IMG/VR virus record: IMGVR_UViG_3300045988_101835
Length of the DNA: 64,000 nucleotides
Reading direction: 5' to 3' (one strand)
From: a virus
The position numbers and the translations under genes were made by a program. Shown here piece by piece: positions 3,185 through 61,738 of this stretch; position 1 is the stretch's first letter, and each line of letters starts with the position of its first letter. The notes beneath the pieces were generated by a model. It made no database searches and was not told the DNA's origin. It saw nothing but the letters and a program-made list of their open reading frames with translations.

Positions 3185-3655
3185 ATGCAATACTTTCTTA
3201 TTATTGATATAGACGGTACGATTGCTTCGTGTGATCATCGTCTTCATTTTATTTCTGGAGCGTCTAAGGACTGGGACTCTTTTTATGCTGGGGTTGAGGG
3301 TGATCCTATTATCGAGAACGTTGCTTGCGTTATTCGTTCGTTGCTTTCTCCGTCTTTACCGCATAACCATTATACGCCTATTTTCATTACGGGGCGTCCT
3401 GAGCGCTGTAAGGAGGCTACCATTCAGTGGCTGTCAGGCTTTGGGTTATGGCGTTCAGACGCAGTCTATCTTTGTCGCCCGGATGCGGACCATTGTCCGG
3501 ACGTGGCTTTGAAGGCTCGTCATTTGGATTACGTGTCTAAGACCTACGGAGTAGCATCCCATAATACGATTATCTTTGAGGATCGTGCCCGTGTCGTAGA
3601 TATGTATCGTTCACGAGGTTTTACGGTGTTTCAGGTCGCTGACGGAAAATATTAA
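3185..3655 (+). CDS. HAD-superfamily phosphatase (nucleotidase / polynucleotide 3'-phosphatase-like)
   Basis: Motif I IIDIDGT, motif II FITGR, motif IV IIFEDR. Confidence 0.7.
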   Translation: MQYFLIIDIDGTIASCDHRLHFISGASKDWDSFYAGVEGDPIIENVACVIRSLLSPSLPHNHYTPIFITGRPERCKEATIQWLSGFGLWRSDAVYLCRPDADHCPDVALKARHLDYVSKTYGVASHNTIIFEDRARVVDMYRSRGFTVFQVADGKY

Positions 3656-5931: not shown

Positions 5932-6348
5932 ATGCGTCTTTTGGTTCGTGATAAGTCGGAGTTTGTCAACTTCGTTCATAACATTTCGGAGCTTCGAGAC
6001 TTCGTTGAGGCTTATGTTCCGGGTACACGTATTGTTCTTGGGGACATCAGCACCTTTTCCAAGCAGATGGTTCCCATGCTTTTGAAGCTCACGGAGGAGA
6101 ATCCTCAGATTGACTGTTATAGTTCTTTGGATATTGTCGATCCGGTTTTGCTCAGTAGGTTTCGGGAGGTTGTGAAGGTTCCGCTTGAGATTCGTTCTGA
6201 GCATTCCGAGAAGGACTTTATGCTCAGTGATCGTTCTTTCTCCAGCACGGTTGCTCACTTGGAGCTTCCGGATACGAGTCGTCTTTTGGCGGTTGGTGCT
6301 TCTAAGACGGAGGTTGCTTTGTTGTCGTTGTCTTTATATAGAGGTTAA
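5932..6348 (+). CDS. Clamp-loader accessory subunit-like protein (delta'/gp62 analogue) lacking a P-loop
   Basis: MLLKLTEENPQ...DPVLLSRFREV resembles LLKTLEEPP...TI.SRC of AAA+ clamp loaders. Confidence 0.4.
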   Translation: MRLLVRDKSEFVNFVHNISELRDFVEAYVPGTRIVLGDISTFSKQMVPMLLKLTEENPQIDCYSSLDIVDPVLLSRFREVVKVPLEIRSEHSEKDFMLSDRSFSSTVAHLELPDTSRLLAVGASKTEVALLSLSLYRG

Positions 6349-28165: not shown

Positions 28166-30949
28166 ATGATGATACGTTCGGTGCGGTTTATAGAGTCTTA
28201 TTATAAGGTCCTGCATAACGGTTGTGAGTTTTACAACCGGGATGCAGGTCTTATGACGTCTGATGATTTTAAGTCTTCGGATGTCAAGTGGCTCATTGTG
28301 TTTCCGTCTTCGTCGTTCGACAAGGATAATTCGATGACGCCTACGGTTCTGTTGGACTTTGTTCGCAGTTCGTGTCCGGGTGTCTTCATTGACTTTGCTT
28401 TTCTGCCTTGCCGGGATGACATTCGGTGGTATGACAAGGAGAGTATGCCTTACGCTATTGGTGTGTCATCCCATCTGGACGCTTCTCACTTTGACATTGT
28501 AGGCTTTAGTATTTCGTGCTTGTACGAGATTCCGGTAGTTCCGTGGATGCTTCAGTCTTTTTCGCGCTGCGATAAGCCTATTCCGCTTTCGTGGTCGGAG
28601 CGGAGTAAGTATAATATTGATGAGCTTCCGGTCATCTATGCAGGCGGTGCTTCTGTGGTCTACTCAGACATTCTGTTTGGTGATTTAGGCGATGGTCGCA
28701 AGAGCTATCTGGATTTCATGCATCTGGGTCAGGTCTGGTCCCAGACTCGCCTACTGCAGCTCATGTTGAATAAGAAGTACAAGAATCCGATTCGTATTGG
28801 TCGTGTTCCTTATCTTCTTTGGGAGCGTGGTGATCGTCATTGCTATATGCCGCAGGCTTATGATATTGTCTTTGATGGTTGTCGTGTAGTATCGGTTACG
28901 CCGACGTCATCTTCCGTCCCTTCGTCGGTTGTTTTTAATACGGGTCAGGAGAAGCCGTCGGGGCTTCTTGGTGCTTCTCGGGGTTATCTTCGTGGTTCGG
29001 GTGGCAACGCGGGGCTGGCTATGGTCTCTGCTGCGGAGGGTTGTGGCTTTACGGGTAACTGTACCTTTTGTGCCGAGGGTCACATTGCGGGGGGCTTGCA
29101 TGAGGAGTCGCAGGATGATATTGTTCGTATGGCCCGGGCAGCTAAGATATCGTCGGGTGCGGATACGGTTAAGCTTGCGTCTTACAATTTGAATTATCTT
29201 ACGGATTGGAAAGGCACGGTTGCTAGGGTTCAGGAGGTTTTTCCTACTGTTTCCTTCAGCAATATGCGGATGGAGGAGCTTGGTCGGGATGAGGATGCTA
29301 TGGAGCTGCTTTTTCAGCTAGGGTTCCGTCGCGGCACTGCTCCTATTGAGGGTATTAGTCCTCGTATTCGTAATGGGTATTATAATAAGGGGCTGTCCGA
29401 GGAGGCGCTGGATTCTTACATGCGTTTCATGGTTCATAGGGGTTGCTTGGACATCAAGGTTGGTATTGTCCTTTGCGGCCTTGAGGAGGGTGCTGATTGG
29501 CAGTGGTTGTATGACTTCACTAAGCGCTGGAAGGACTACGCTGCTTCCCGCGGGGGTAAGCTACCTATTCGGTATCGTTGTACGCCTTTGGTTCAGTATC
29601 CTTTGACGCCTATGGAGTATACGGCTAAGTCCGCCGCTCGCATTAGTTATGAGGATGGTGAGTGGGTTCCACGGTATTGGTTTGACAAGTTTGCTGCGGA
29701 GCTTGATACGCGCATTCAGGTTAACGGCTATCGTTACAGTACGTTGCTGGAGCAGGTTTTTGTGAGCTTGGGTCGTAAGATGACTTCGTCCTTGCAGTCG
29801 GTTTTGTCTTCCGGGCATTTCCTGTACAACATGCGCGCTTTGACTACTTCGTCTTTTATGGATGATATCCGTTCGGTTATTTCCGCCGATGCTGCATCTT
29901 TCTTTGAGATGCCGGATATTGATTCCTATGTTTCCATTCTGTCGGCGGTGTCCTCTCCTTTTTCAGAGGTTTGTAAGTTGCAGGGACGTAACATCCAGTC
30001 GGGGCTTTCGGCGCTTCCTATGAGTCGTTGCCTTCGTACTAATGCAGTAGATCGCCTTACATGCTATGAGAAGATTTCAGGGGGTTGTACGGGGTGTGTT
30101 GGGAAGGCTGCCTCCTTGCGTCCATTTAACCGTCAGTTGCTATCTTCGGTCACTTCGAAGGATATTCTTGCCGTTGTTAAGCCAGAAACGGTCCAAACGC
30201 TTCGTTTCAGGATAAAGAGGTATGGTTACGCCACAGTTTTAAATCCGCGTCATACAGCGCATATTTTGGCCTCGGCATTAATGCAGCATTCTGAGGTTTC
30301 GGCTGCGTCCTTTATTCGTGTATCGAAGATTCACTCTATGTATGGTCAGTCTTATGCGGATAGTCATTGGGACGTTAGTGGGAGTCAGTTAGTAGACCTT
30401 GAGTTTAGGACATTGCTTTCTACAGATGTGGTTAATGCTGCGATTGCGTCTGCGAATTCGATACTACAGTCTTTTACGATTATGGGCTTCTCGGATGGGA
30501 GTCTTGATTCCGGTATTGAGTTGACAGACATGAATGTTTTCACGTTCCGGTCGGATTTGCCATTGGAGGTTTGGGATTTCGTTTTGCCGGAGTACGATGG
30601 TTCTGTCATGGTCCTTGAGGGTGACAAGTATTATCCTCATCTTTTGAAGTCGGGGCCGTTATCTGCCCCGGTTGTTGGGGGTGCTTCGGGAGGTTCGAAG
30701 GGTGTCTTCGTGCTTCCGGTCCGTTGCAATCCGTGGTACTATCTTCGTGCTGTTTTGCGTCCTAAGCGAGTACATCCCAATAAACTTTATAGAGATACGT
30801 TTATTGACTGCGTTACAACGGTTAGGGTTAGGGATTATGCTGCTTGTAGTGGCTGTGGTTCCTCGAATGCCGTTTATGATATAGGTTCGGGTAAGCCTTA
30901 TAACTTCTGCACGAGTTGTTTGGCAAAGTTATTATTGAAGAAGTTGTGA
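28166..30949 (+). CDS. B12-binding-domain radical SAM protein (TIGR03960/DUF2344-like) with an atypical CX5CX2C cluster motif and a C-terminal zinc ribbon
   Basis: AAEGCGFTGNCTFCAEG. GTAPIEGISPRIRNGYYNKGLSEE resembles TFAPEAGSqRLRdvInKgite. The N-terminal region resembles a B12 domain. CSGCG...CTSC at the end. Confidence 0.65.
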   Translation: MMIRSVRFIESYYKVLHNGCEFYNRDAGLMTSDDFKSSDVKWLIVFPSSSFDKDNSMTPTVLLDFVRSSCPGVFIDFAFLPCRDDIRWYDKESMPYAIGVSSHLDASHFDIVGFSISCLYEIPVVPWMLQSFSRCDKPIPLSWSERSKYNIDELPVIYAGGASVVYSDILFGDLGDGRKSYLDFMHLGQVWSQTRLLQLMLNKKYKNPIRIGRVPYLLWERGDRHCYMPQAYDIVFDGCRVVSVTPTSSSVPSSVVFNTGQEKPSGLLGASRGYLRGSGGNAGLAMVSAAEGCGFTGNCTFCAEGHIAGGLHEESQDDIVRMARAAKISSGADTVKLASYNLNYLTDWKGTVARVQEVFPTVSFSNMRMEELGRDEDAMELLFQLGFRRGTAPIEGISPRIRNGYYNKGLSEEALDSYMRFMVHRGCLDIKVGIVLCGLEEGADWQWLYDFTKRWKDYAASRGGKLPIRYRCTPLVQYPLTPMEYTAKSAARISYEDGEWVPRYWFDKFAAELDTRIQVNGYRYSTLLEQVFVSLGRKMTSSLQSVLSSGHFLYNMRALTTSSFMDDIRSVISADAASFFEMPDIDSYVSILSAVSSPFSEVCKLQGRNIQSGLSALPMSRCLRTNAVDRLTCYEKISGGCTGCVGKAASLRPFNRQLLSSVTSKDILAVVKPETVQTLRFRIKRYGYATVLNPRHTAHILASALMQHSEVSAASFIRVSKIHSMYGQSYADSHWDVSGSQLVDLEFRTLLSTDVVNAAIASANSILQSFTIMGFSDGSLDSGIELTDMNVFTFRSDLPLEVWDFVLPEYDGSVMVLEGDKYYPHLLKSGPLSAPVVGGASGGSKGVFVLPVRCNPWYYLRAVLRPKRVHPNKLYRDTFIDCVTTVRVRDYAACSGCGSSNAVYDIGSGKPYNFCTSCLAKLLLKKL

Positions 30950-31566: not shown

Positions 31567-32172
31567 ATGAATCTTCCGGTGAGTCATATATGTCTACCTC
31601 CGGGGTTTCGTCACAAAAATTACCAGTGGTTAAAGTTGCTGGAGTTGTGGGGCGGTATTCGTGGTGGTGTTGAGGTTCGTGAGAACTTCATTACGGACGA
31701 TTTGGCTGTAGATGTTTTGGAGCATCTGCCGTGTGCATCGGGGGATCGTATTTCCTTTTGGTATACCCGAGACGTTGGGGGTCGTGGCAAAAATACTTCC
31801 GTTGACTACTTTGGTTTGGTAGGTTTATCCTTGTTGAACTTGTCGGACCGTCGTGTCATTATTACGGAGGGTGTTTCTGATTATTTGTCTGCTAAGTTGT
31901 GCTACCCGACCTTCAACGTTCTTGGGTTTACTTCTCTTGGTGGCAATTCGAAGGCTACCCGTATTGTCTTGTCGTTGTTCGACGAGCTTTATTATTTTGC
32001 GGATAATGACATGGATAAGCATGGGTTTAATACGGGTTTGCGTGCCGGGGGCAACGTTTTGAATTTTTATATGCGTCATGGTAAGCGTGTCCATGTTTTG
32101 ACACCGAATTTGCCTTATAAGGATACGACGCAGCAGTTTCTGGCAGACTTGGCGTTCGCGTTTAACAGTTAG
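31567..32172 (+). CDS. Toprim-domain protein (primase-like)
   Basis: VIITEGVSDYLS...LGFTSLGG...YYFADNDMDKHG...KD. Confidence 0.65.
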   Translation: MNLPVSHICLPPGFRHKNYQWLKLLELWGGIRGGVEVRENFITDDLAVDVLEHLPCASGDRISFWYTRDVGGRGKNTSVDYFGLVGLSLLNLSDRRVIITEGVSDYLSAKLCYPTFNVLGFTSLGGNSKATRIVLSLFDELYYFADNDMDKHGFNTGLRAGGNVLNFYMRHGKRVHVLTPNLPYKDTTQQFLADLAFAFNS

Positions 32173-32181
32173 GTTTCTTTT

Positions 32182-33050: not shown

Positions 33051-33329
33051 ATGGGTACTACCTTCAAGGATTTGGCTTTGTTCTTTGTGTTTCTAGCTGA
33101 GGAAGGAGCTACGGCTCAGTTTTTCGAGAATTGGGTTCCCAACGATCCGTTTTGTCGTGCGTGTTCAGATATTGTAGGTTCGTTCACTTTGTGGGTTCAA
33201 AGATATGGCGTGGCTTGGGACTCTTATATTACTTCCTCTTTTCGTTGGGGGTGCTCCCTTGAAGGTCCTGCTTACTGGTCGGATTTAAACTTCAAATGGT
33301 TGAGTTATTATGGGACGGTTTGTAAGTAG
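33051..33329 (+). CDS. Hypothetical protein, paralog of ORF 2878..3177
   Basis: Shared F.FL.EEG...F......FRW...EG..YW.D...KW pattern. Confidence 0.55.
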   Translation: MGTTFKDLALFFVFLAEEGATAQFFENWVPNDPFCRACSDIVGSFTLWVQRYGVAWDSYITSSFRWGCSLEGPAYWSDLNFKWLSYYGTVCK

Positions 33330-33927
33330 CGACAGTGTGGTGTATACTCGCTTTTGCGAGATCATCAATGGGTTCACGGGTTATGCTATGACCCGTCAGG
33401 ACTTCGAGTCTATTCTGGAGCGATGTGGTAGTCCTTATGCGTGGAGTACGGTCCGGGCGTGGCTTAGGGGTTTGGAGCGCTTAGGCTTCGTTTATCCGTT
33501 GTATAACATCGACCAAGTGCGTTCGGGTGCTAAGCAGGTGTGGTTCTTGTATCATCCCTTGCTGCATCCTTTGCGTTCTACGGAGCTTAAGTACGCTAAG
33601 AGTCTTTCTCCTGTAGAGTCTATCCAGTTGAAGTTTTCTCCGGTTCTGTCTCGTTTAGGAGATACTCGTCCGTGGCATGCTGCTTTACATGCTATTAATT
33701 CTCGAGTTTTCCATGTAGACGTGAATCTTAAGTTCAAGATTGGTATGGGAGTTGTGAATCGGATTTTCGCTCCTCATGTTAATAGTTTGTTTGCGGCGCC
33801 TGTTGTATCTTCTATGTTTGTTATGAGCTTGATTGCTTCTGGGGTTTGTAAGAGGATTTACGAATTAAAGCTGCAGAAAGCCCACGCCTTTAGGCGTGGG
33901 ATGAATGCAGCCTATCTTTTCTTCTGA
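33310..33927 (+). CDS. Hypothetical (winged-helix-like) protein whose 3' end is replaced by IS605 left-end sequence
   Basis: The reading frame runs across the predicted IS boundary at 33861/33862. The last 22 codons are IS-derived. Confidence 0.6.
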   Translation: MGRFVSSDSVVYTRFCEIINGFTGYAMTRQDFESILERCGSPYAWSTVRAWLRGLERLGFVYPLYNIDQVRSGAKQVWFLYHPLLHPLRSTELKYAKSLSPVESIQLKFSPVLSRLGDTRPWHAALHAINSRVFHVDVNLKFKIGMGVVNRIFAPHVNSLFAAPVVSSMFVMSLIASGVCKRIYELKLQKAHAFRRGMNAAYLFF

Positions 33928-34310
33928 TCCTCGATATATCGACGTATTGTATCTTCAGAAATGTGTCCTATCGTCTCAACGTAATAGGATCGCGTCCAGA
34001 GGGTCGGCATGCGTGTCTGCAGCGACGGAAATTCAAGCCGGAGCGTATGTGATGTGTAACCCTTAAGCTGTGCCACAATCCGCGCAACCGGATCAATCGG
34101 GTTGGCCTTAATAAAAAGATGAACATGGTCGGGCATGACCTCCAGCGACTCGATAACCCATCCGAACTTGATAGCTTGCTCATGGAGCAAGACATTAAAA
34201 CGTTTTGCAATATCACCCGTTAAAACCTTTCGACGATACTTGGAGCACCAGATGATATGATAGGCTACATTATAGACGGAGCCTTTATTTATCTGCCAAC
34301 GGGTACGCAT
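33912..34310 (-). CDS. tnpA: IS200/IS605 Y1 (HUH) transposase TnpA
   Basis: MRTRWQINKGSVYNVAYHIIWCSKYRRKVL...MPDHVHLFI...GYTS...LWTRSYY carries the HUH and catalytic Tyr context. Internal ATG at 34310. Confidence 0.9.
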   Translation of the reverse strand: MRTRWQINKGSVYNVAYHIIWCSKYRRKVLTGDIAKRFNVLLHEQAIKFGWVIESLEVMPDHVHLFIKANPIDPVARIVAQLKGYTSHTLRLEFPSLQTRMPTLWTRSYYVETIGHISEDTIRRYIEDQKKR

Positions 34311-34318
34311 GGTTTTTA

Positions 34319-34350
34319 TTTGCAAAAATAGTATTCTATTCTTATATTTG
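34319..34350 (+). promoter_or_regulatory. Bacteroidota-type promoter inside the IS, driving tnpB
   Basis: tttg at 34319-34322 and tatatttg at 34343-34350, with 20-nt spacing. Confidence 0.6.
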
Positions 34351-34369
34351 TGGCATAAAGAGTACAATA

Positions 34370-35500
34370 ATGTTGACCTACAAGTACAAACTCTATAGGA
34401 CGCATCGGACCATATGGTTGGATCGGATGCTTCGTGAGTGTGCGTTTGTATGGAACCATGCGCTTGCACTTCAACGTAGATACTACCATTTGTACGGTAA
34501 GTACGTTTCGTCGGTAGATATGCAGAAGCATTTCGCCAAACGCATCAAGCGGCATCTATTGTACTCACATAATAGCGTTGAGGTATTACAGAGATTGGAC
34601 GCAGCTTACCAACGGTTCTTCAAGAAGCTTGCTAAGCGTCCGCCTAAGTTTCGCCGGGCTTCAGACTTTCAGTCATTCGTCTACAAACTCCACTATGGCT
34701 ATAAAATAGACGGCAATTGCTTTACAATTAACAGACTTAAGAAAACTTATAAATTTCACAAATCCCGTGACTTTGCGGGTGCAATAAAGACGGTTCGTGT
34801 TAAACGCGATCCATGCGGTGACTTTTGGTTATACATTACAACCGATGCCAAAGTAGAAGCCAGCAACACGACATATGATGGTGCGGTTGTAGGAATTGAC
34901 TTTGGCCTTAAGACATATCTGACGTTATCCGACGGGCGCAGCTATGCGAACCCGCAATTCTTCAAGCAGACGCTGCGCGACATCCGTAAGGCGCATCGTC
35001 GGCTGAGCCGTTCCGTCAAAGGATCCAATAACCACCGCCGTCGGTGGTTGGAGCTTGGTCGGATCTACCGTAGGATTAGCAATCATCGCGACGATTATCA
35101 GTGGCGCTTGGCACATGAGTTATGTCGTCGTTATTCTACGATCTGCTTGGAGACACTAAGCCTTGACGGGATGCGCCGGTTGTGGGGTCGCAAGGTTTCG
35201 GATCTCAGCCACGCATCGTTCGTATCGCACTTGGAATTCGTAGCCACTAAGTATGGCACGAGCGTTGTGCATGTCGACAAGTGGTTTGCTAGCAGCAAGA
35301 CGTGTAGTTGTTGCGGATACGTTAATAAGGAGCTTCGTTTGGTTGCTCGATCGTGGGTTTGTCCACAATGTGGTACGCACCATGATCGTGATCTAAACGC
35401 GGCGTTAAACATTAAGCGTTCGGGCATGGGCGCGTTGATTAGTGGTTGTAAGTCCGCTTCGGCGGCCGCCATGCTTGAGTCAAGAATCCAGCGGCTTTAG
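34370..35500 (+). CDS. tnpB: TnpB RNA-guided endonuclease, copy B
   Basis: 376 aa. VVGIDFGLK, ICLETLS and HDRDLNAALNI motifs. CSCCG...CPQCG zinc ribbon. Confidence 0.9.
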   Translation: MLTYKYKLYRTHRTIWLDRMLRECAFVWNHALALQRRYYHLYGKYVSSVDMQKHFAKRIKRHLLYSHNSVEVLQRLDAAYQRFFKKLAKRPPKFRRASDFQSFVYKLHYGYKIDGNCFTINRLKKTYKFHKSRDFAGAIKTVRVKRDPCGDFWLYITTDAKVEASNTTYDGAVVGIDFGLKTYLTLSDGRSYANPQFFKQTLRDIRKAHRRLSRSVKGSNNHRRRWLELGRIYRRISNHRDDYQWRLAHELCRRYSTICLETLSLDGMRRLWGRKVSDLSHASFVSHLEFVATKYGTSVVHVDKWFASSKTCSCCGYVNKELRLVARSWVCPQCGTHHDRDLNAALNIKRSGMGALISGCKSASAAAMLESRIQRL

Positions 35501-35537
35501 CCGCGGGAGTATGTCAAATATGGAGGTTATGATCTCG
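35350..35537 (+). ncRNA. Predicted omegaRNA of TnpB copy B: scaffold to 35517, guide about 35518-35537. Boundaries are approximate.
   Basis: By analogy with characterised TnpB systems. Hairpin gcggc-ttta-gccgc at 35491-35504. Confidence 0.35.
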
Positions 35538-35603
35538 CGGGTTGGGTCCTTAAGATTAAGTCTACTCTCTCGGATATGGGTGTTTCTTTGAACAGTGATT
35601 TTT

Positions 35604-37880
35604 ATGGCTGGGGGAAATAGTACTACTACTTTAGCGAATCTTTATCGTCCCAAGACTTTTGCGGACGTCGTGGGCCAGCCTTTGGCGGTTACCACCTTGA
35701 AGCGTATTGCCCATGCGGACGGTATCGCCGCACGTGCTATTTTTATGAAGGGTGCGTTTGGCTCCGGTAAAACTACGACTGCCCGTATTTTTGCTAGAGC
35801 TTTGAACTGTGATACTTTCAAGCAGACTGACGATGTTTGTAATACGTGTGATGGTTGTCTGGAGGCTTCGTCGGTTAATTCCTCTACGTATTGGGAGCTT
35901 GATGGTACAGTCATAGGTAACGTCGAGGGTATTCGTGCTCTGAAGGAGCGCTTGTCTATTGTTCCTAATGGTCGTAGGGTTGTCTGTCTTGACGAAGTTC
36001 AGAGTTGCTTGTACTATAATACACCTGTAGTGTGTGTATCAGATGACGGCAGTATTTACCGTCAGCCGATTCACAAGATTGTTAATAATCGGCTACCTGT
36101 GAAGGTTCTTTCGGTTAACGCTGCGGGAGGTCTTTGTGTTTCTCGTGTTACGGGTTGGTTTAAGAATCCTCTTAAGCAGTTATGTCGTATTAAGGTACGG
36201 GGCGCTTCTGGTCTTAAAAAGATTGGTTCTGGCTCGCGGGTAATAGTTTGTACTTTAGATCATCGCTTTTTACGTTCGGATGGTGAGTATGTTTGTGCTT
36301 CGGACTTACATTTAGGAGATTCGTTGTCATCTTTTTTTAGTGTGTGCGGGGATCGTTTTATTCAGGCAGAGCTTAATAAGCGTACTGAGTATATCATTTC
36401 CGATTCAACAAAGTCGTTCCTTTATGGGAGTCTTTTGGGTGATATGTACTTTTCTTCTGGTGATGTAAATTACAATTATCGTTTGAAGTGCACTCATGGA
36501 CATGTTCAGCTTTTTTGGTTACGTGAGAAGCATCGTATACTTGGGTGCTTAGCTGGGGCCTTGCGGGAGTTTGTTAGCTCGCCGGGTGCTTATGTTGATT
36601 CAGTTTCTGTTATGAATTCGTTGAGTCATCCTTTATTTACCGAGATGGCGAGAGTTTGTTGTGGTTCTGATGGGAAACGTCACGTAAATATGGAGTGGTT
36701 GTCTCATGTCGACGAGATAGGGTTAGCTGCTTGGTTTATGGATGATGGTTCTTATCATTTTCGTCGTTTGCGTAATAAACAGGTAACCTGCTTGCATGGG
36801 GTTCAACTGTCTACTCATAGCTTTACTTATGAGGAAAATGAACTTTTAGTTAAGTGGTTATCTGATCGTTGGGGTCTAGATTTTTATATTAGGGTTGATA
36901 AGAGATGTGGTAAGCCTTACTTAGTTTCTAGTCATGTTGAGTCTGCTAGGAAGTTTTTAGCACTTGTTGCTCCTTTCCTTTGCAAGGAGTTTCAATATAA
37001 GTTAGGTAACACTTTTGAGGCTGGTGGTGGTGTTAGGTCTATTCCAGCAATTTCCAAGCGAGTCCCGGAATACTTCGGCGGTTTTTTATTCGATGGGGTT
37101 GTCGAGAGTATTGAGATTTTTGACCCTCCGAAGTACTCATCTGTTAAATCTGGCTGTTTGTCTAGCGAGAATAAATATCCTTATGATAATGGTTGGGTAT
37201 ACGACTTGGAGGTAGCAGATACTCATTCTTATATTGCAGGCCGGGGATTTGTGGTTCATAACTGCAGCAGGAGTGCGAGTGACGCTTTATTGAAGGTTGT
37301 CGAGGAGGGAGTTCCTAATACGATCTTTCTCTTTTGTGGCACGGAGGATATCCAGCCAACTTTAAAGTCTCGTTGTGTAAATATTGACATTTCGGTTATT
37401 CCTTTGTCTTTGATTGCGGATCGCGTTCGGTTTATAGCTAACGACCGGGGTATCTCTATTACGGATGATCAGCTTCGAATCTTGGCTATGAAGTCTCAGG
37501 GTCACATGCGGGATGCCCTTCAGTTGCTTCAGTTTTACGAGCTTGCGGGCGAACGTGCTCTTGACAGCTCCTACTTCTTGTTCCGGGAGTTTGTGCGCTC
37601 TTGCTTCGCAAAGGGCGCCGATCCTTCGTCCGTTTTGCCAAAGCTGTTGGTTTATTCCACTGCAGATATAAAGATGTCTGTAGGGCTTCTTATTCGCAAT
37701 ATTTTCGGCAGTGTTCAGGATGACTCTTTGGAGTCTAAGTTCCAGCGTGCGGGTCTGGGTCAGACGTTGTTTAGCTTTTTCTTTTCTCCGTTAGCTCAGC
37801 AGGCTTTGGGTTCTGAGATTGGGACAGAGATTTTGCTTAGGTCTTTAATGGAGCGAACTGCGGGTTCTCGAAAGGTGTAG
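35604..37880 (+). CDS. Clamp-loader AAA+ ATPase (DnaX/RFC/gp44-like) interrupted by an intein
   Basis: LYRPKTFADVVGQ, Walker A GAFGSGKTT, Walker B CLDEVQS, then after the intein SASDALLKVVEEGVP and LKSRC. Confidence 0.85.
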   Translation: MAGGNSTTTLANLYRPKTFADVVGQPLAVTTLKRIAHADGIAARAIFMKGAFGSGKTTTARIFARALNCDTFKQTDDVCNTCDGCLEASSVNSSTYWELDGTVIGNVEGIRALKERLSIVPNGRRVVCLDEVQSCLYYNTPVVCVSDDGSIYRQPIHKIVNNRLPVKVLSVNAAGGLCVSRVTGWFKNPLKQLCRIKVRGASGLKKIGSGSRVIVCTLDHRFLRSDGEYVCASDLHLGDSLSSFFSVCGDRFIQAELNKRTEYIISDSTKSFLYGSLLGDMYFSSGDVNYNYRLKCTHGHVQLFWLREKHRILGCLAGALREFVSSPGAYVDSVSVMNSLSHPLFTEMARVCCGSDGKRHVNMEWLSHVDEIGLAAWFMDDGSYHFRRLRNKQVTCLHGVQLSTHSFTYEENELLVKWLSDRWGLDFYIRVDKRCGKPYLVSSHVESARKFLALVAPFLCKEFQYKLGNTFEAGGGVRSIPAISKRVPEYFGGFLFDGVVESIEIFDPPKYSSVKSGCLSSENKYPYDNGWVYDLEVADTHSYIAGRGFVVHNCSRSASDALLKVVEEGVPNTIFLFCGTEDIQPTLKSRCVNIDISVIPLSLIADRVRFIANDRGISITDDQLRILAMKSQGHMRDALQLLQFYELAGERALDSSYFLFREFVRSCFAKGADPSSVLPKLLVYSTADIKMSVGLLIRNIFGSVQDDSLESKFQRAGLGQTLFSFFFSPLAQQALGSEIGTEILLRSLMERTAGSRKV
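36006..37262 (+). mobile_element. Intein (419 aa) with a LAGLIDADG homing endonuclease, inserted after Walker B of the clamp loader
   Basis: Starts at Cys (CLYYNT), block B TLDH, LYGSLLGDMYF and LAAWFMDDGSY, ends VVHN followed by +1 Cys. Confidence 0.85.
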
Positions 37881-40108: not shown

Positions 40109-43100
40109 ATGGGGTCAGTTAAGGATACGATACAGCGTCGGGGTGGTGTTGCTTCTGCCGTCAGCGACTTGCTTCTTACGGAGCGCAAGCTAGTAGGATT
40201 TCGGGAGTTTATTCTTTCTCCAGACTATATGGCTTTGGAGGGGGTCTATCCTTTCTGGTTGAAGGAGGCAGATAACATGCAGGATGACTTGTCTTCACTG
40301 GTGTTGACAGGCTCATTAGGAGGCGGCAAGTGCGTAGTTTACAGCGACTTGGTATCGACGGATCATGGGTACGTTCCTATTGGGTCTTTGGTTCCAGATG
40401 CGGGTTATGGCTTCACACCGTTCGAGGTTGGTGTCGAGCAGCCAGATGGTAGCTTTGCGCAGACGAGTCATTTCTACAAGGAGAAGGACGCGGAGGTGCT
40501 TCACTTGCGTTGTGCTAGTGGTCGGAGTTATAGTGGTACTGCGGATCATCCTCGGTTAGCTTATCGTGTCGGCTCGGATCGCGTTGAGTTGGTTCGCTGT
40601 GGCGACTTGCGTGTCGGTGATTATATCGCCCGCCGTTGGACAGGTAGTATCGAGTTGCATCCGGACGCAGATGAGGCTAAGCTTTATTGCTTGTATGGTG
40701 TCTGGCTTGGGGATGGTCATTTTGATAATGCTGTTCCTCACAATCCAGTTATAGGTTATTTGTCATGTGATACTTTAGCTGATTGGTGTCGTGAGGTTGA
40801 AGGCTATTTGACGAGTAATGCTCATATTTGTAAAGAGAGTGGCTGTCGGTTATATTCGTTGCCGTTGTATCGCTCTAGGCTTCGTGATTTTATAGGTGGT
40901 TACTGTGTCGCTAATACGAAGTATATTCACAGTGCTGCTTTCGGAAGTCGTGAGCGTGCATTTTACACGTTGTATGGTTTGCTTATTACAGATGGGTATG
41001 TAAATAAAGGTCATGGGACGCTTGGGTTTGCTACAGTTTCTCCGCGTTTGGCGGATGGTGTATGTAGCATTCTCGACTATCTTGGTTTGCAGTATAGCAT
41101 CCGGAAGCGTACAGATCGCAAGTATTTTTATAAGAAGGTTGGTGAGTGGCGTCCGGCGCAGGACAGTTATCGGATAACTATATCAGTTGAGTCATCGCAT
41201 GCTTTATACGATGCTATGCTAGCTTACGTTCCTCTCCTTGAGATGGATGCTCCGCATCAGCGTCGTCTTATTGAAGGGCTTCGTGCAGATTTTGAGGCTC
41301 GTGCTAGTAAGAGTTCTCGAATAAACTGTAAGACTACTTTCAAGTTAGAAGGTGCTGAGGTTGGCATAGTGGCGCAGCTGCGTTCGGTTCGTCAGTTGAC
41401 GGATGTGTCGACGCGAAATAAGTTTGATTCTTATGCTAGGACTACCCATTCTATGTTGGGGAATAAAGCTGCATCCAATCAGGCTTTCGAACGTTTGCGA
41501 GCGTGGTTGGAGGATCGAGGTCAGACGTTGCCGGACAACTTGGCTTCTTTTTGTGATGTTCGTTTTGACCGAATTGAGAGTATTGATACGACGGTTGAGG
41601 ATGTTTATGATGTTACAGTTCCTTCGACGCATTTGTTCATGTCGGGGAATGTGGTGAATCATAATACGTCTTACCTGAATATGGTTACTTGCTATAAGTT
41701 GTATTGCTGGTTTAGTCAGGGCGACTTGTATAACTATTTTCAAATCCTTCGTGGTACGCCTATTTACTTTTTGTACTTCTCTGTATCGATGAAGGCTGCG
41801 GAGCGTTCTGGTTTCAAGCAGTTGCGACAGATGATTGATAATGCCCCGTGGTTTAAAAATAATTTTCCGCGCCGTAAGGACATTCAGTCTTCCATTCAGT
41901 TTAATAATAATTTCTCAATTGAGTTTGCTTCGGGTGAGAGTCATGCTATTGGTTTGAATGTCGTTGGTGCTATTATTGACGAGGCTAATTTCAGGAATGG
42001 TGTCGGTCAGGGTACTGTTTCAGAGTATTCGGAGGTCCAGCGTTTGGCTCAGCAGTTGGAGGACCGTATGCATTCTCGTTTTACCCGTGAGGGCGGTAAG
42101 TTGATTTCTTTCATGGGGTACATTTCCTCGGCTTCTTATCAGTCTTCGTTTATCGAGGAGAAGGTTGCCGAGTTGGCATCTGATCCGCAGGGTCGTGTTA
42201 TTAATGCCGTTCAGTATAAGATTTGTCCTCAGAATTACTCGCCTAAGAAGTTCGAGGTGTTCTGTGGCTACCAGCAGATTTCCCCGTGTATTGTCCAGAG
42301 CAAGGAGCATAAGGCTACGCTTGTGAAGTCTATGAGTCTTCCGAAGTCTAAGGCGGAGGGTTATTTCGAGCGTGTTCCGGAGGATCTGAAGTCGCAGTTC
42401 AAGAAGAACATCTATCTGGCCATCCAGAATCATTGCGGACGTTCTACAGCGGCTAAGGGTAGCTTCATCACGAACTATGATGTCGTTCGCAAGGCGTATA
42501 GTGATGCGTTGCTTCGTGCGTGTCCTTTGGTTCAGAGTAGTATTGTTGTCTCGGATCAGGACGATACTCCTATCCGCTCTGTTCTGGATATTTCACGTTT
42601 ACAGTATACGGATCGTCCTCATGCCCTGTGCTTGGACTTGTCTTTGACGGGCGACCACGGTTCTTTGTGCTGTGTTCGGTTTGATGGCTATGCGGCAGAC
42701 GGCAGGGCTTTGCATAATGAGGTTTTCAACTTAGAGCTTGTTCCTCCGGCGTTTCCGGGGATGTTGAAGGTTTCGAAGGTCGAGGATTTCATTTTGTGGC
42801 TTGCAGAGCATTTGAATATTGTGGTTTTTAGTACTGACCAGTTCCAGTCCACGCAGCTTCGTCAGAATGTGTGCGAGGCTTTGATGCTTCCGGATATCCG
42901 CCTTTCTTTGGATAGTTCCGACATTCCTCATTTGTTGTGGCTTTCGATGTTAGTTGACGAGCGTCTTGGTCTTCTTTACTTGGAGCGTCAGGATCGAGAG
43001 ATTCGGGAGGCGGTCCATGATGTTGTCAAGCATAAGGTTGTCAAGCGTGACGGGTCTTCAGACGACCAGTTCCAGACTTTGGTCGGTGCCTTCTTCTTGT

Positions 43101-43414
43101 CGGAGACGATCTGTACGCAGGAGGGGGATATATCGTCCTTGCTTGATGCGCGCCTTAACTTGGTTGGTGCAGGTAATATTAACCGTATGCTTAAGTCGCT
43201 TGGCTATGGTGGCGTTGCTTTGGATGGCCGGGGTCAGGTTGCCCGTGCTGCTGTTTCGGACGTCGAGGCTCCGCGTCCGAGTGTCCGTTCGCTTCTGGAG
43301 GGTCGTGCTGCTTCGGGTCCGTCGTTTACGAGTTCTGATGTTATTGCTTCGATGACGCCGCGTCGTAGACGTGGTGGTGTCTGGGATTTGATTAATGGTT
43401 TGGGCGACAAGTGA
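40109..43414 (+). CDS. terL: Terminase large subunit interrupted by an intein
   Basis: The P-loop GSLGGGK|...|TSY is reconstituted after intein removal. Walker B-like GAIIDEANF. Sits upstream of the portal-size gene. Confidence 0.85.
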   Translation: MGSVKDTIQRRGGVASAVSDLLLTERKLVGFREFILSPDYMALEGVYPFWLKEADNMQDDLSSLVLTGSLGGGKCVVYSDLVSTDHGYVPIGSLVPDAGYGFTPFEVGVEQPDGSFAQTSHFYKEKDAEVLHLRCASGRSYSGTADHPRLAYRVGSDRVELVRCGDLRVGDYIARRWTGSIELHPDADEAKLYCLYGVWLGDGHFDNAVPHNPVIGYLSCDTLADWCREVEGYLTSNAHICKESGCRLYSLPLYRSRLRDFIGGYCVANTKYIHSAAFGSRERAFYTLYGLLITDGYVNKGHGTLGFATVSPRLADGVCSILDYLGLQYSIRKRTDRKYFYKKVGEWRPAQDSYRITISVESSHALYDAMLAYVPLLEMDAPHQRRLIEGLRADFEARASKSSRINCKTTFKLEGAEVGIVAQLRSVRQLTDVSTRNKFDSYARTTHSMLGNKAASNQAFERLRAWLEDRGQTLPDNLASFCDVRFDRIESIDTTVEDVYDVTVPSTHLFMSGNVVNHNTSYLNMVTCYKLYCWFSQGDLYNYFQILRGTPIYFLYFSVSMKAAERSGFKQLRQMIDNAPWFKNNFPRRKDIQSSIQFNNNFSIEFASGESHAIGLNVVGAIIDEANFRNGVGQGTVSEYSEVQRLAQQLEDRMHSRFTREGGKLISFMGYISSASYQSSFIEEKVAELASDPQGRVINAVQYKICPQNYSPKKFEVFCGYQQISPCIVQSKEHKATLVKSMSLPKSKAEGYFERVPEDLKSQFKKNIYLAIQNHCGRSTAAKGSFITNYDVVRKAYSDALLRACPLVQSSIVVSDQDDTPIRSVLDISRLQYTDRPHALCLDLSLTGDHGSLCCVRFDGYAADGRALHNEVFNLELVPPAFPGMLKVSKVEDFILWLAEHLNIVVFSTDQFQSTQLRQNVCEALMLPDIRLSLDSSDIPHLLWLSMLVDERLGLLYLERQDREIREAVHDVVKHKVVKRDGSSDDQFQTLVGAFFLSETICTQEGDISSLLDARLNLVGAGNINRMLKSLGYGGVALDGRGQVARAAVSDVEAPRPSVRSLLEGRAASGPSFTSSDVIASMTPRRRRGGVWDLINGLGDK
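40331..41665 (+). mobile_element. Intein (445 aa) with a LAGLIDADG homing endonuclease, inserted in the TerL Walker A loop
   Basis: Starts at Cys (CVVYSD), block B TADH, LYGVWLGDGHF and LYGLLITDGYV, ends VNHN followed by +1 Thr. Confidence 0.85.
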
Positions 43415-52198: not shown

Positions 52199-53239
52199 AT
52201 GTTTTCGGGGATTATTTATTTACGTATTAGTCCTAGTAATAAAGGGTATGTTGGTCAGACTATTGACGAGGCGGGCCGCGATTGGGAGTTTGGTAATTTA
52301 AATAAGCGTTATGGTGGTGCAGCCATCGAGGCCGCACGCCGTAAGTATCCTCCTTCGTTGTGGCGTAAATTCACTATATGTACGGTTAACGCTCGTAATC
52401 GGGACGAGCTTCGAGTTTGGCTTGATGCTCTGGAGGTATATTACATTTGGGCTTTCCAGACTGCCGATAAACGGTATGGTTACAATGCGAAGCTAGGAGG
52501 TAATAGTCGTGGTGGGTATCGTCATTCGGAGGAGACACTACGCAAGATAGGTGCTGGTAATAAGGGGAAAGTTGTTTCTCCGGAGGCACGCGCTATAATT
52601 GCGTCTAAGCTGCGAGGACGTAAGCGTCCTTTGTCTGCTTGTGTAAAGACTTCGTTGGCTATGCGAGGTCATGTGTGGTCTCCGGAGACTTGTGCCAAAC
52701 GTTCGGCAGCTTTACGGGGTCGTAAGCTACCTCCTAATAGCGCTGTATTTTCGGAGGAGTATCGTCAGCGTCATCGTGAGTTGTCTGCTGGTCGTCTTCA
52801 TAGTCAGGCTGCTAAGAATAAGGTTTCTATTTCTAAGGGTTATCGTCCCGTTCTGGTTTATGATCGCGCTTCGGGTTCTTTTCTTGGTGAGTTTCAGACG
52901 CGCGTAGAGGCTGCTGCTCTTGGAGGTATACTTCCACATCAGATAGCACAGTCTTTTTCTGCACATCCGGGCGCGTTGTGGGTGTGCATTAAGAGTCATG
53001 TGTATGCATCGTCTGATCCTTCGTTGTCACGTGTTTCTCTTTGTGACAATGGGTATACTCCGGTTCTTCCTCCGTCGCAGCGTTCTATTAGCTGTGTCTC
53101 TTTACGCGGCAAGGACTTGGGTTGTGATAGCTTGTCAGGCTGGGAGTCTCGTCTAGGCATACGTCGTAATAATATTCTCCGTGTTTGCAATGGTGATCGA
53201 AATGTTGCTGGCGGCTACGTTTTCCGCTATGTAGGCTAG
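52199..53239 (+). CDS. GIY-YIG homing endonuclease with NUMOD3-like repeats (free-standing)
   Basis: GIIYLRISPSNKGYVGQT, YGYN, repeated H/S.E(E)T..K(I/L)....G modules, GGYVFRY at the C-terminus. Confidence 0.8.
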   Translation: MFSGIIYLRISPSNKGYVGQTIDEAGRDWEFGNLNKRYGGAAIEAARRKYPPSLWRKFTICTVNARNRDELRVWLDALEVYYIWAFQTADKRYGYNAKLGGNSRGGYRHSEETLRKIGAGNKGKVVSPEARAIIASKLRGRKRPLSACVKTSLAMRGHVWSPETCAKRSAALRGRKLPPNSAVFSEEYRQRHRELSAGRLHSQAAKNKVSISKGYRPVLVYDRASGSFLGEFQTRVEAAALGGILPHQIAQSFSAHPGALWVCIKSHVYASSDPSLSRVSLCDNGYTPVLPPSQRSISCVSLRGKDLGCDSLSGWESRLGIRRNNILRVCNGDRNVAGGYVFRYVG

Positions 53240-60604: not shown

Positions 60605-60730
60605 CTTTTATACGTATATGTTTTTGCGAGGTGTTTGGTCTTGCGACCTCAAAATTTTTTCATTGATAAAGTGAAGCGGTGACTTAGGTTGCTGCTTCTT
60701 TTGTTGCGATTGTATACGTATTATCCTTAT

Positions 60731-61738
60731 ATGTATCGGGGTATTATTTACTTGCGGACTTCGCCGTCGGTTAAGTACTACGTCGGCTTGACCACGAATG
60801 AGACCAAGCGTCAGGAGTATTGGTTAAATACCAAGCGCGACTACGGTGGTTATCTAATTCGTGACGCCCGGAAGCGTTATCCGCCGGAGACGTGGGGCTA
60901 CACGGTTTTGGCGGAGGTCTTTAGTCCTTCGCGGTCGGACCTTATGGTTTGGCTTAATGCGCTGGAGGTCTACTTCATTTGGCGTTACGACTCTAATAAC
61001 CCGGAGCATGGTTATAACCTCACACGCGGTGGTGAGGGTCGTCTTGGCTACAAGTGCCGTCCGGAGGTTAAGGCGCGTCTTTCTGCTTTGTACAAGGGTC
61101 GCCCGCTTTCCGAGGAGACGAAGGAGAAAATCTCTCGTGCGGCTAAGGGCCGCAAGGCTTCGGAGGAGACACGACGGAAGCTGTCGGCTGCTCATAAGGG
61201 CAGAAAGCATTCAGAGGCTGCTAGGCGTGCTATGTCTTTAGCTTTGCGTGGGGTTCCGCATCATGCAGGTACTGGGCTTATTTTATCAGCTATCCACAAG
61301 GGGCGCAGACTTGATCCATCTCATGTTGCTAAGTTGCATGCTGCTAATCGTAAGGCTGTGCTACAGTATTCATTGTCGGGTGAGTTGCTGGCGGAGTTTG
61401 ATAGCGCTGTTGAGGCAAGTGCTGCGCTGGGAGTTTGTTATGGCCCTATTAGTCAGTGTTGTCGCGGCACTTTAAAGACGGCTTATGGGTTCAAGTGGGT
61501 TTTCAAGAATCCTGCACCGCCAGCCATCAAGCGTTCAGATCGTTATGTGGGTCAGTTCAGTTTGGAGGGCGAGTTGCTGCATGTTTATCCGTCTGCAGTT
61601 GCTGCCGCTAAGGCGACTTCTGGTCTTGTCTATGGTATTCGTGGATGCTGTAGAGGGGAGCATATTACGTCGGGTGGTTTCCGTTGGCATTATGTACATA
61701 AAGATACTCATGCAATTATATATCCCATAAATAAATAA
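60731..61738 (+). CDS. GIY-YIG homing endonuclease with NUMOD3 repeats, paralog of ORF 52199
   Basis: GIIYLRTSPSVKYYVGLT, YGYN, SEETKEKIS / SEETRRKLS / HSEAARRAMS repeats, YGFKWVF and GGFRWHYV. Confidence 0.8.
   Translation: MYRGIIYLRTSPSVKYYVGLTTNETKRQEYWLNTKRDYGGYLIRDARKRYPPETWGYTVLAEVFSPSRSDLMVWLNALEVYFIWRYDSNNPEHGYNLTRGGEGRLGYKCRPEVKARLSALYKGRPLSEETKEKISRAAKGRKASEETRRKLSAAHKGRKHSEAARRAMSLALRGVPHHAGTGLILSAIHKGRRLDPSHVAKLHAANRKAVLQYSLSGELLAEFDSAVEASAALGVCYGPISQCCRGTLKTAYGFKWVFKNPAPPAIKRSDRYVGQFSLEGELLHVYPSAVAAAKATSGLVYGIRGCCRGEHITSGGFRWHYVHKDTHAIIYPINK
61711..61725 (+). promoter_or_regulatory. Late-promoter-like motif (TGCAATTATATATCC followed by cATAAATA) embedded in the last codons of the homing-endonuclease gene
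   Basis: 26 nt before the sheath ATG at 61752. Confidence 0.55.

Follow-up and report, generated by a model that had tools for sequence, protein, structure and literature searches.

An IS605-group element with IS608-type ends in a gut phage genome, present or absent among near-identical relatives and apparently carried between phage lineages by recombination

In a window of 64,000 nucleotides (nt) of the virus record IMGVR_UViG_3300045988_101835, i.e., the whole stretch of DNA that we analysed and on whose numbering coordinates are given unless another sequence is named, we identify the interval 33862-35517 as a full-length insertion sequence (IS) of the IS200/IS605 family, which belongs to the IS605 group, with divergent tnpA and tnpB genes, and whose ends are built like those of IS608. 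The element interrupts the 3′ end of a phage open reading frame (ORF) starting at position 33310, and it is present in some and absent from other phage genomes that are otherwise 99.5-99.8% identical. The account that we favour, and consider very probable as a whole, is that of an IS608-like element whose segment has spread by recombination between phage lineages.

The anatomy of the ends is given by the following features:
33862-35517, + strand: the whole IS, 1,656 bp; similarity to other copies begins at 33862 and ends at 35517.
33858-33861, + strand: TTAC, the left cleavage and target site (CL), outside the IS and the upstream one of the two TTACs of the empty allele.
33877-33880, + strand: the guide tetranucleotide AAAG (GL), directly 5′ of the foot of the left hairpin.
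33881-33900, + strand: the left subterminal hairpin (IPL), cccacgcc-ttta-ggcgtggg, with an 8-bp stem and a TTTA loop.
35484-35487, + strand: the guide tetranucleotide GAAT (GR), 5′ of the foot of the right hairpin and invariant in 13 copies.
35488-35507, + strand: the right subterminal hairpin (IPR), ccagcggc-ttta-gccgcggg, with one A/G mismatch.
35514-35517, + strand: TCAA, the right cleavage site (CR), which forms the final 4 nt of the IS and ends 10 nt past the foot of IPR.

The active (top) strand of the IS is the + strand of the window, and the IS interval is absent from eight related genomes. The spacing from TTAC to the left hairpin is exactly 19 nt. Published work on IS608 places the left cleavage site TTAC 19 nt 5′ of the IPL foot and the right cleavage site TCAA 10 nt 3′ of the IPR foot (PMC3201880), and gives its guide sequences as AAAG on the left and GAAT on the right (PMC5934647), so that all six end parameters (CL, CR, GL, GR, 19 nt and 10 nt) of the window element are identical to the published values. 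Both ends, read directly in the sequence, thus agree at every coordinate with a first-pass annotation of this DNA, which had placed TTAC at 33858-33861, 19 nt before a hairpin at 33881-33900, and TCAA at 35514-35517, ending 10 nt after a hairpin foot at 35507, and had likened these distances and tetranucleotides to those of IS608; the guide tetranucleotides, which it did not mention, match as well. As expected of this family, the insertion lies 3′ of a fixed tetranucleotide with no target duplication, i.e., the flank is not repeated at the right end. The IPL is enclosed by an outer 6-bp stem, in which 33870-75 pairs with 33906-11, and folding of the ends as single-stranded DNA against shuffled sequence gave −16.3 kcal/mol (z −5.9) for the left end (LE) and −9.8 kcal/mol (z −3.3) for the right end (RE). 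The hairpin regions of the two ends are direct repeats on one strand, 75% identical, and terminal inverted repeats are absent.

The coding part of the element comprises two divergently oriented genes and a motif between them:
33912-34310, − strand: tnpA, a Y1 HUH transposase of 132 amino acids (aa) (Pfam Y1_Tnp, E 6e-38).
34370-35500, + strand: tnpB, a homologue of RNA-guided nucleases of 376 aa (Pfam OrfB_IS605, PF01385, and Cas12f1-like TNB, PF07282).
34319-34350, + strand: a promoter-like motif, TTTG-N20-TATATTTG (TAtaTTTG type), 20 nt upstream of tnpB.

The best solved-structure match of TnpA is ISHp608 TnpA (2a6m, E 2e-26); in the alignment of the two, HVH, the HUH motif, falls on H64/H66 and the tyrosine of RRYIEDQ on Y127, which upholds the earlier statement that the transposase motifs are intact. 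TnpB aligns over its full length with ISDra2 TnpB (8bf8, E 8e-43), with the RuvC D/E/D residues (GIDFG, CLETL and HDRDLNAALNI) and the CxxC..CxxC zinc finger conserved, and its stop codon falls within the right hairpin. With its parts intact, the element is probably a mobile copy. The motif at 34319-34350 fits what we take to be the Bacteroidota promoter consensus; such motifs occur 10 times in the window versus 1.98 expected, always on the + strand. The host-type promoter that the first-pass annotation assigned to the element is therefore present as a motif, albeit as a prediction made from sequence, and the type and enrichment of the motif point to a Bacteroidota host. A Muribaculaceae or other Bacteroidales strain is the probable candidate.

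We tested the boundaries of the element against related copies, using a search of IMG/VR with TnpB, which returned 14 loci (10 of them at 85-90% aa identity), and a pattern scan for right ends, which returned 11 RE on 8 viral contigs. Similarity at the left end begins right after TTAC in 9 of 11 distinct family insertions (nine LE copies aligned), and similarity at the right end stops right after GTCAA in 13 of 13 aligned copies. The hairpins are kept among copies: in the left hairpin 97% of cells are paired across nine copies, with compensatory C:G to T:A changes. Three forms of the family are present, i.e., full tnpA and tnpB elements (L004-6 and L019), tnpB-only elements (L007-11 and L013) and a miniature form. 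The last of these, at 3368-3533 of MT839121.1 (L001), is ~170 nt long, contains neither tnpA nor tnpB, and reads TTAC|LE hairpin...last 128 nt of RE...TCAA|; it therefore confirms both ends of the IS and identifies the last 128 nt as the part kept in non-autonomous derivatives. Its host is an unrelated human-faecal phage scaffold, with putative tRNA-gene-like sequences nearby. A megablast search of INPHARED with the IS and with the surrounding 10 kb gave a sole match, of 128 bp, to this miniature copy, and the window phage itself is not in INPHARED.

A second copy of the same family lies in the window, next to part of a third element:
235-1383, + strand: copy 2, tnpB-only, with an ORF at 235-1344 (369 aa) and an RE ending in GTCAA at 1383.
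1-209, + strand: the 3′ end of a different IS200/IS605 element, encoding part of a 415-aa TnpB (...HDRDFNAACNIKEF...SLV*) and carrying its own hairpin, ccgctaaa/tttagcgg.

Copy 2 is 88% identical to the main copy in aa and 84% in nt. Where copy 2 would have its left end, the 3′ end of the other element is found instead, nested there and in the promoter region; this other element continues beyond the window and is present in L048 in full form with its own Y1 tnpA. The IS family is multicopy in related phage contigs, and the copy 2 tnpB is present in every related genome looked up, including all five loci found via its downstream gene. No empty site for copy 2 was found, the IMG/VR alleles all being occupied, and none was found for copy L004, for which the sole other contig containing its right flank has an unrelated left flank. 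More widely, the TnpB clade at 73-90% identity is small, with the next relatives, one of them named as a Muribaculaceae transposase, at 55-60%; a scan of species-representative genomes gave TnpBs at 27-38% and one partial match at 64%, apart from one rabbit Muribaculaceae metagenome-assembled genome. All near-identical “bacterial” copies come from that one assembly, in which the sequence may or may not be phage, and they are not used here as evidence for a host. The strand skew of the IS is near nil (GC 0.06, AT −0.02) versus a strong skew of the phage backbone (0.17 and −0.26), and among 1.66-kb stretches across the window AT skew is weakest in the two IS copies, an outlier status consistent with a foreign, poorly ameliorated origin of the IS.

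Empty alleles of the insertion site were identified in eight IS-free genomes, two of them in IMG/VR (L002 and L003), two in metagenome contigs (L027 and L028) and four in ENA/Logan (L041-44), and for L003, L027 and L028 the sequence is 99.5-99.8% identical to the window on both sides of the IS. All eight read TTAC-tgtactgatcagtattttgcaccacatgctcctgTTAC-atatggagg, with the consensus ...ggatTTAC-tgtactgatcagtattttgcaccacatgctcc(t/g)(g/a)TTAC-atatggagg..., i.e., these alleles, which come from three lineages, all contain 38 extra nt ending in a second TTAC. In the occupied allele, which reads first TTAC|IS|atatggagg, the IS meets phage sequence at the upstream TTAC on its left and at the downstream TTAC on its right; the two junctions thus use different TTACs, 38 nt apart, and the stretch of 38 nt between these is missing. 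The two kinds of allele do not, then, differ by the IS alone, a departure from seamless insertion that concerns the history of the allele and not the family membership of the element. Empty-site alleles do exist in relatives, as had been anticipated, but all eight differ at the boundary from ATTTAC|ATATGGAGG, which the first-pass annotation had predicted as the empty site.

The consequences for the interrupted gene are as follows:
33310-33927, + strand: a truncated fusion ORF of 205 aa, with 184 native and 21 IS-encoded residues; the native protein has 230 aa.
35519-35620, + strand: the orphaned 3′ remnant of the native ORF, 33 codons and TAG, still open and overlapping the start of a clamp-loader-like gene.

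Comparison of the fusion ORF with the native protein bears out the proposal that a phage-borne IS has rewritten the 3′ end of the ORF at 33310. The rewriting is not limited to the last four codons, as had been proposed: 46 native residues (CTDQYFAPHAPVTYGGYDLAGWVLKIKSVLSDMGVSLNSDFYGWGK) are lost, and 21 IS-encoded residues and a stop are gained. Joining 33861 to 35518 gives KRIY-IWRL*, as had been calculated, and this arithmetic is right, but the product is a frame-shifted reading that results from the 38-nt gap and does not represent a natural empty site. Exact-sequence look-ups among ~15 billion proteins, in which absence is weak evidence since exact identity is needed, found the native 230-aa allele with the window-type N-terminus on 76 contigs and the 205-aa fusion on 18 contigs; the precise-excision product ...KRIYIWRL (joint GGATTTAC|ATATGGAGG) was absent from them. 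We also considered, and discarded, a TAG read-through that would join TnpB to the in-frame remnant of the native ORF: no stop codon is used more often than TAG in the window (28 of 47), and the long ORFs run without interruption.

The distribution of the occupied allele is best explained by transfer of a segment. Many samples contain the exact fusion protein, which is encoded on at least 23 contigs; 8 of 8 loci fetched agree on the left junction, and 3 of 3 contigs that extend to the right junction agree on that one. Both alleles occur in some samples, those of PRJEB24041 among them. Comparison of the window with the empty genome L027 gave only 4 differences in 2,338 nt of left flank, the nearest 46 nt from the IS, and, over 2,746 nt on the right side of the IS, 11 mismatches, of which 7 fall within the first 152 nt (binomial P = 4e-7, or 5e-5 with the ACT codon counted as one event). 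These define a set of states linked to the IS:
35536-35669, + strand: IS-linked flank states C35536, G35539, T35542, ACT35564-66 and C35669.

The first three (+19, +22 and +25 from the IS) are synonymous third positions in the native frame, ACT35564-66 is a Val-to-Thr codon change, and C35669 lies at +152. Every occupied allele for which the right flank was read (4 of 4) has the linked states, and the four closest empty alleles (L002, L003, L027 and L028) lack them. Those from +19 to +49, but not C35669, are the native states of L041, an empty lineage that is divergent (protein P0002, ...KSTLSD...). In addition, genome L030 contains this IS, differing at 1 of its 1,656 nt, together with 519 identical nt of left flank, on a backbone that is strongly divergent beyond −520 and from +10 onward. 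Because the linked states match the L041 lineage and the L030 backbone carries a near-identical IS, we conclude from these sequence comparisons that homologous recombination has, by all indications, carried the IS-bearing segment from one phage lineage to another on two or more occasions, and the window genome itself probably received the segment by recombination and not by fresh transposition. The first-pass annotation had read the locus as the outcome of a recent single-strand transposition event, which is at odds with a fusion allele found on 18-23 contigs from many samples and with flank states derived from a divergent lineage.

Two TnpA-type junctions at adjacent TTACs are the most likely source of the 38-nt loss, and three routes to this loss can be drawn. 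Each of the two TTACs could have received an insertion, whether in the same genome or in separate ones, with the two IS copies recombining afterwards (route a); TnpA could have cleaved TCAA| and the next downstream TTAC| and rejoined them, with the 38 nt leaving as a mini-circle (route b); or insertion at the downstream TTAC could have been followed by slippage between the 4-nt TTAC repeats (route c). Copy 2 offers a parallel, in that L009-11 read TCAA|gtTTAC|tgtttt and the window, L013 and L048-52 read TCAA|tgtttt, a difference of 6 nt. The copy 2 variants are 97-100% identical per 100-nt window except over the last ~50 nt, where differences include the 5′ arm of the IPR, and this hints at route a, i.e., double insertion and recombination between IS copies. 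A literature search on adjacent deletions by IS608 TnpA found nothing described for the IS200/IS605 family.

If the window element follows IS608 biochemistry, TnpA would bind both subterminal hairpins on the + strand and, with AAAG and GAAT as guides, cleave on the 3′ side of TTAC and of TCAA, and the element would move as a single-stranded circle that integrates 3′ of TTAC. A second route to spread is suggested by tnpB and by two putative RNA features at the right end:
35390-35517, + strand: putative omega-RNA scaffold, made up of the tnpB 3′ end and the RE, and the exact part retained in the MT839121.1 miniature.
35518-35535, + strand: right flank, the putative guide portion of the omega-RNA, 18 nt identical to the sequence 3′ of the second TTAC of the empty allele.

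We infer that the 3′ end of tnpB and the RE encode an omega-RNA with its guide in the right flank, and TTAC at 33858-33861 would also be the transposon-associated motif (TAM) of TnpB. TnpB with this omega-RNA (the last ~130 nt of the element plus the right-flank guide) would cut IS-free co-infecting genomes beside TTAC, and recombinational repair from an IS-bearing genome would then copy the IS into the cut genome; a UvsX-like recombinase of the phage (9816-10925; PHROG 97, E 6e-29) could support such repair. The empty genomes L002, L003, L027 and L028 contain TTAC followed by 18 nt identical to 35518-35535 (TTAC+atatggaggttatgat), and are therefore predicted TnpB targets. The cluster of right-side markers starting at +19 fits a conversion tract left by homing: in a drive of this kind, UvsX-type recombination would drag along a short tract of right-flank markers whose start lies immediately past the guide match. 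In published work, TnpB guarded transposons against loss and drove them through plasmid populations. We regard TnpB-driven homing at this locus as possible but somewhat doubtful, and the combined proposal, in which an IS605 element acts as an RNA-guided gene drive among co-infecting lytic phages and TnpA makes the flank deletions (38 nt here and 6 nt at copy 2), as rather unlikely.

Several observations weigh against the account that we favour, or against the parts that it assigns to TnpA and TnpB. No allele was found that has the IS at just one TTAC and still contains the 38 nt: the junction of an IS at the upstream TTAC would then read GTATGTCAA|TGTACTGATC, and the protein product expected of an IS at the downstream TTAC (...PVTN, in four backgrounds; CCTGTTAC|GAATTAAAG) was absent by exact look-up. 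Exact TnpB was found on 13 contigs, all at this locus, which gives no sign of a recent move elsewhere, and the RE-LE junction expected of a circle or tandem (GGGAGTATGTCAA|GAATTAAAGCTG) was not found in IMG/VR contigs. The linkage of flank states to the IS is also expected from descent with background recombination, and these phages are mosaic in general. The identical block of L030 stops at most 9 nt to the right of the IS, and repair of a break at +15 to +21 should have converted +10 and +13 too; this transfer therefore looks like ordinary recombination and not like conversion initiated by TnpB. As for the omega-RNA, an Rfam scan of the element returned no family at E ≤ 1, and the last 128 nt, although conserved among copies and predicted to form a long conserved stem, show weak covariation and overlap coding sequence.

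Several of these observations are shared with the strongest rival explanation, to which we give something under one chance in three, namely that the IS inserted at the downstream TTAC, that the 38 nt were lost by an unrelated slippage deletion, and that the allele spread by descent and background recombination without TnpB. Direct TTAC repeats do flank the lost segment, slippage between TTACs fits the difference of 6 nt (gtTTAC) at copy 2 as well, the L030 right boundary within 9 nt of the IS is unlike repair of a break at +15 to +21, and these phages show mosaicism in general. Against it, a 4-nt microhomology over 38 nt is a weak substrate, and the target tetranucleotide of the transposase marks the exact end in each of two independent cases from one IS family; a history without TnpB would also have to accommodate an intact TnpB with its predicted TAM and target present in empty genomes.

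We consider it improbable that the element is an immobilised TnpB/omega-RNA module, kept as a weapon against IS-free relatives or persisting as a decaying relic. Such a module would account for an exact copy confined to this locus, for the presence of copy 2, which lacks tnpA, in every genome looked up, and for a window full of other homing-type nucleases and inteins. It would also account for L031, where a 23-nt deletion at ~6150-6185 (corresponding to window 35470-35492) removes GAAT and the 5′ arm of the IPR, i.e., half of that hairpin, and lengthens tnpB to 379 aa; although it has presumably lost its mobility, this copy is still kept. The window element, on the other hand, has its tnpA, hairpins, guides and cleavage sites intact and identical to those of a working system, and the mobility of the family is evident from its derivatives (full, tnpB-only and miniature), which sit at many different TTAC sites.

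The reading of the first-pass annotation, one recent and clean insertion in this genome 3′ of the TTAC ending at 33861, with ATTTAC|ATATGGAGG as the empty site and the last four codons replaced, now has very little probability. Its end geometry is perfect for an IS608-type insertion 3′ of TTAC and its join is correctly calculated, but the eight empty alleles from three lineages all hold 38 more nt ending in a second TTAC, ...KRIYIWRL is missing from the ~15 billion proteins where the native 230-aa protein is found on 76 contigs, and the same occupied allele is present in many samples with flank markers of another lineage. An assembly chimera joining a bacterial IS to a phage contig, which the differing strand composition of the IS might suggest, can be dismissed, since contigs of 50-141 kb that were assembled independently, at least 13-23 of them and from separate samples and projects, share identical junctions that fall exactly at TTAC| and TCAA|; this excludes an artefact.

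The element can be placed among known systems, and we compared it with IS608 and IS605 in particular. In IS608 tnpA and tnpB are co-directional, and in IS605, which uses a TTTAA-type site, they are divergent. The window element shares with IS608 (ISHp608, from Helicobacter pylori) the cleavage and guide tetranucleotides, the distances, the lack of terminal inverted repeats and insertion 3′ of TTAC, and ISHp608 TnpA is the closest solved structure to its transposase. It differs from IS608 in its divergent genes, in its hairpin sequences, in its setting (a gut phage with Bacteroidota-type promoters versus an epsilonproteobacterial chromosome), and in a natural occupied allele that is not clean, with 38 nt missing. 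With IS605 of H. pylori and the ISfinder IS605 group it shares a Y1 tnpA divergent from tnpB and subterminal hairpins, whereas its cleavage and guide tetranucleotides match those of IS608. Full-length alignment and intact RuvC D/E/D residues and zinc finger liken its nuclease to the ISDra2 TnpB/omega-RNA system. Its setting resembles that of TnpB drive on plasmids in that the replicon is multicopy and a TAM-like TTAC with an 18-nt match is present in empty genomes, and differs in that the replicon is a phage, the competing copies would be co-infecting genomes, and the conversion tract is suggestive in the window lineage and not in L030. The homing endonuclease genes and inteins of T4-like phages, known for co-conversion and marker exclusion, are likewise selfish nuclease insertions, present or absent in near-identical phages and carrying flanking markers along; unlike these, recognition by the window element would be RNA-guided, through TnpB, and it has an independent transposase route.

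TnpBs in viruses have been noted in surveys. The virulent Campylobacter myophages CP220 and CPt10 contain several IS per genome (ISCaje1-4), mostly tnpB-only and one with tnpA and tnpB, at insertion sites that differ between related phages (PMC2853527); these belong to a different host phylum and IS lineage, and that report gives no analysis of empty sites or flank haplotypes (PMC2853527). With this precedent (PMC2853527), a second copy and part of a third element in the window, and a family that is multicopy, the suggestion that such elements are uncommon in lytic myoviruses is not supported.

The host replicon is a ~135-kb gut phage with Bacteroidota-type promoters, in which a T4-like portal, major head protein, head protease and UvsX-like recombinase were identified; no tail sheath was found when the structural genes were searched with PHROGs and Pfam. 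Nearly all long ORFs of the window are on the + strand, TTAC occurs 330 times on the + strand and 149 times on the − strand, and all IS copies in the window have the + strand as their active strand. Inteins occur in two genes of the window. The clamp-loader gene just downstream (35595-37880; DNA pol III delta'/DnaX-like) contains a LAGLIDADG intein after CLDEVQS, and the terminase large subunit gene (40109-43414) contains an intein with a LAGLIDADG domain. The clamp-loader inteins vary: one was seen directly in L002 in the P-loop (GSGK|C), L030 and L041 encode a 784-aa product with an Intein_splicing match, and L042-44 encode a 340-aa product with no intein, i.e., inteins are present or absent at this locus too. 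Two free-standing NUMOD-type endonuclease genes lie at 52199-53239 and 60689-61738. L030 also contains, at ~1620-2870, a TnpB-only element (335 aa) with inverted repeats of ~17 bp (tatatacaattttacac ... gtgtaaaattgtacata) and ends that are not IS605-like, located between a 201-aa ORF and a Dam-like methyltransferase; the corresponding site in the window is empty (~32165-32180). A 927-aa ORF at 28166-30949 gave weak, sub-threshold radical-SAM matches (Pfam E ~7e-5).

The presence of the element is not in itself news, because it is a typical IS200/IS605 member and virulent phages were already known to carry elements of this kind; the useful part is the evidence from allele populations and the two-TTAC junction. 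For annotators, these results are a warning that the 205-aa ORF is a truncated fusion. The phage group is rich in selfish nucleases, i.e., inteins, NUMOD endonucleases and several TnpBs, and the locus provides a natural experiment, with near-identical occupied and empty alleles, the same IS on a divergent backbone, linked markers, and an intact TnpB with predicted targets. The two-TTAC junction raises the question of whether TnpA can delete the flank between its right end and a nearby target site. Phage co-infection would be the next multicopy setting in which to look for TnpB drive, and this locus offers defined alleles for doing so.

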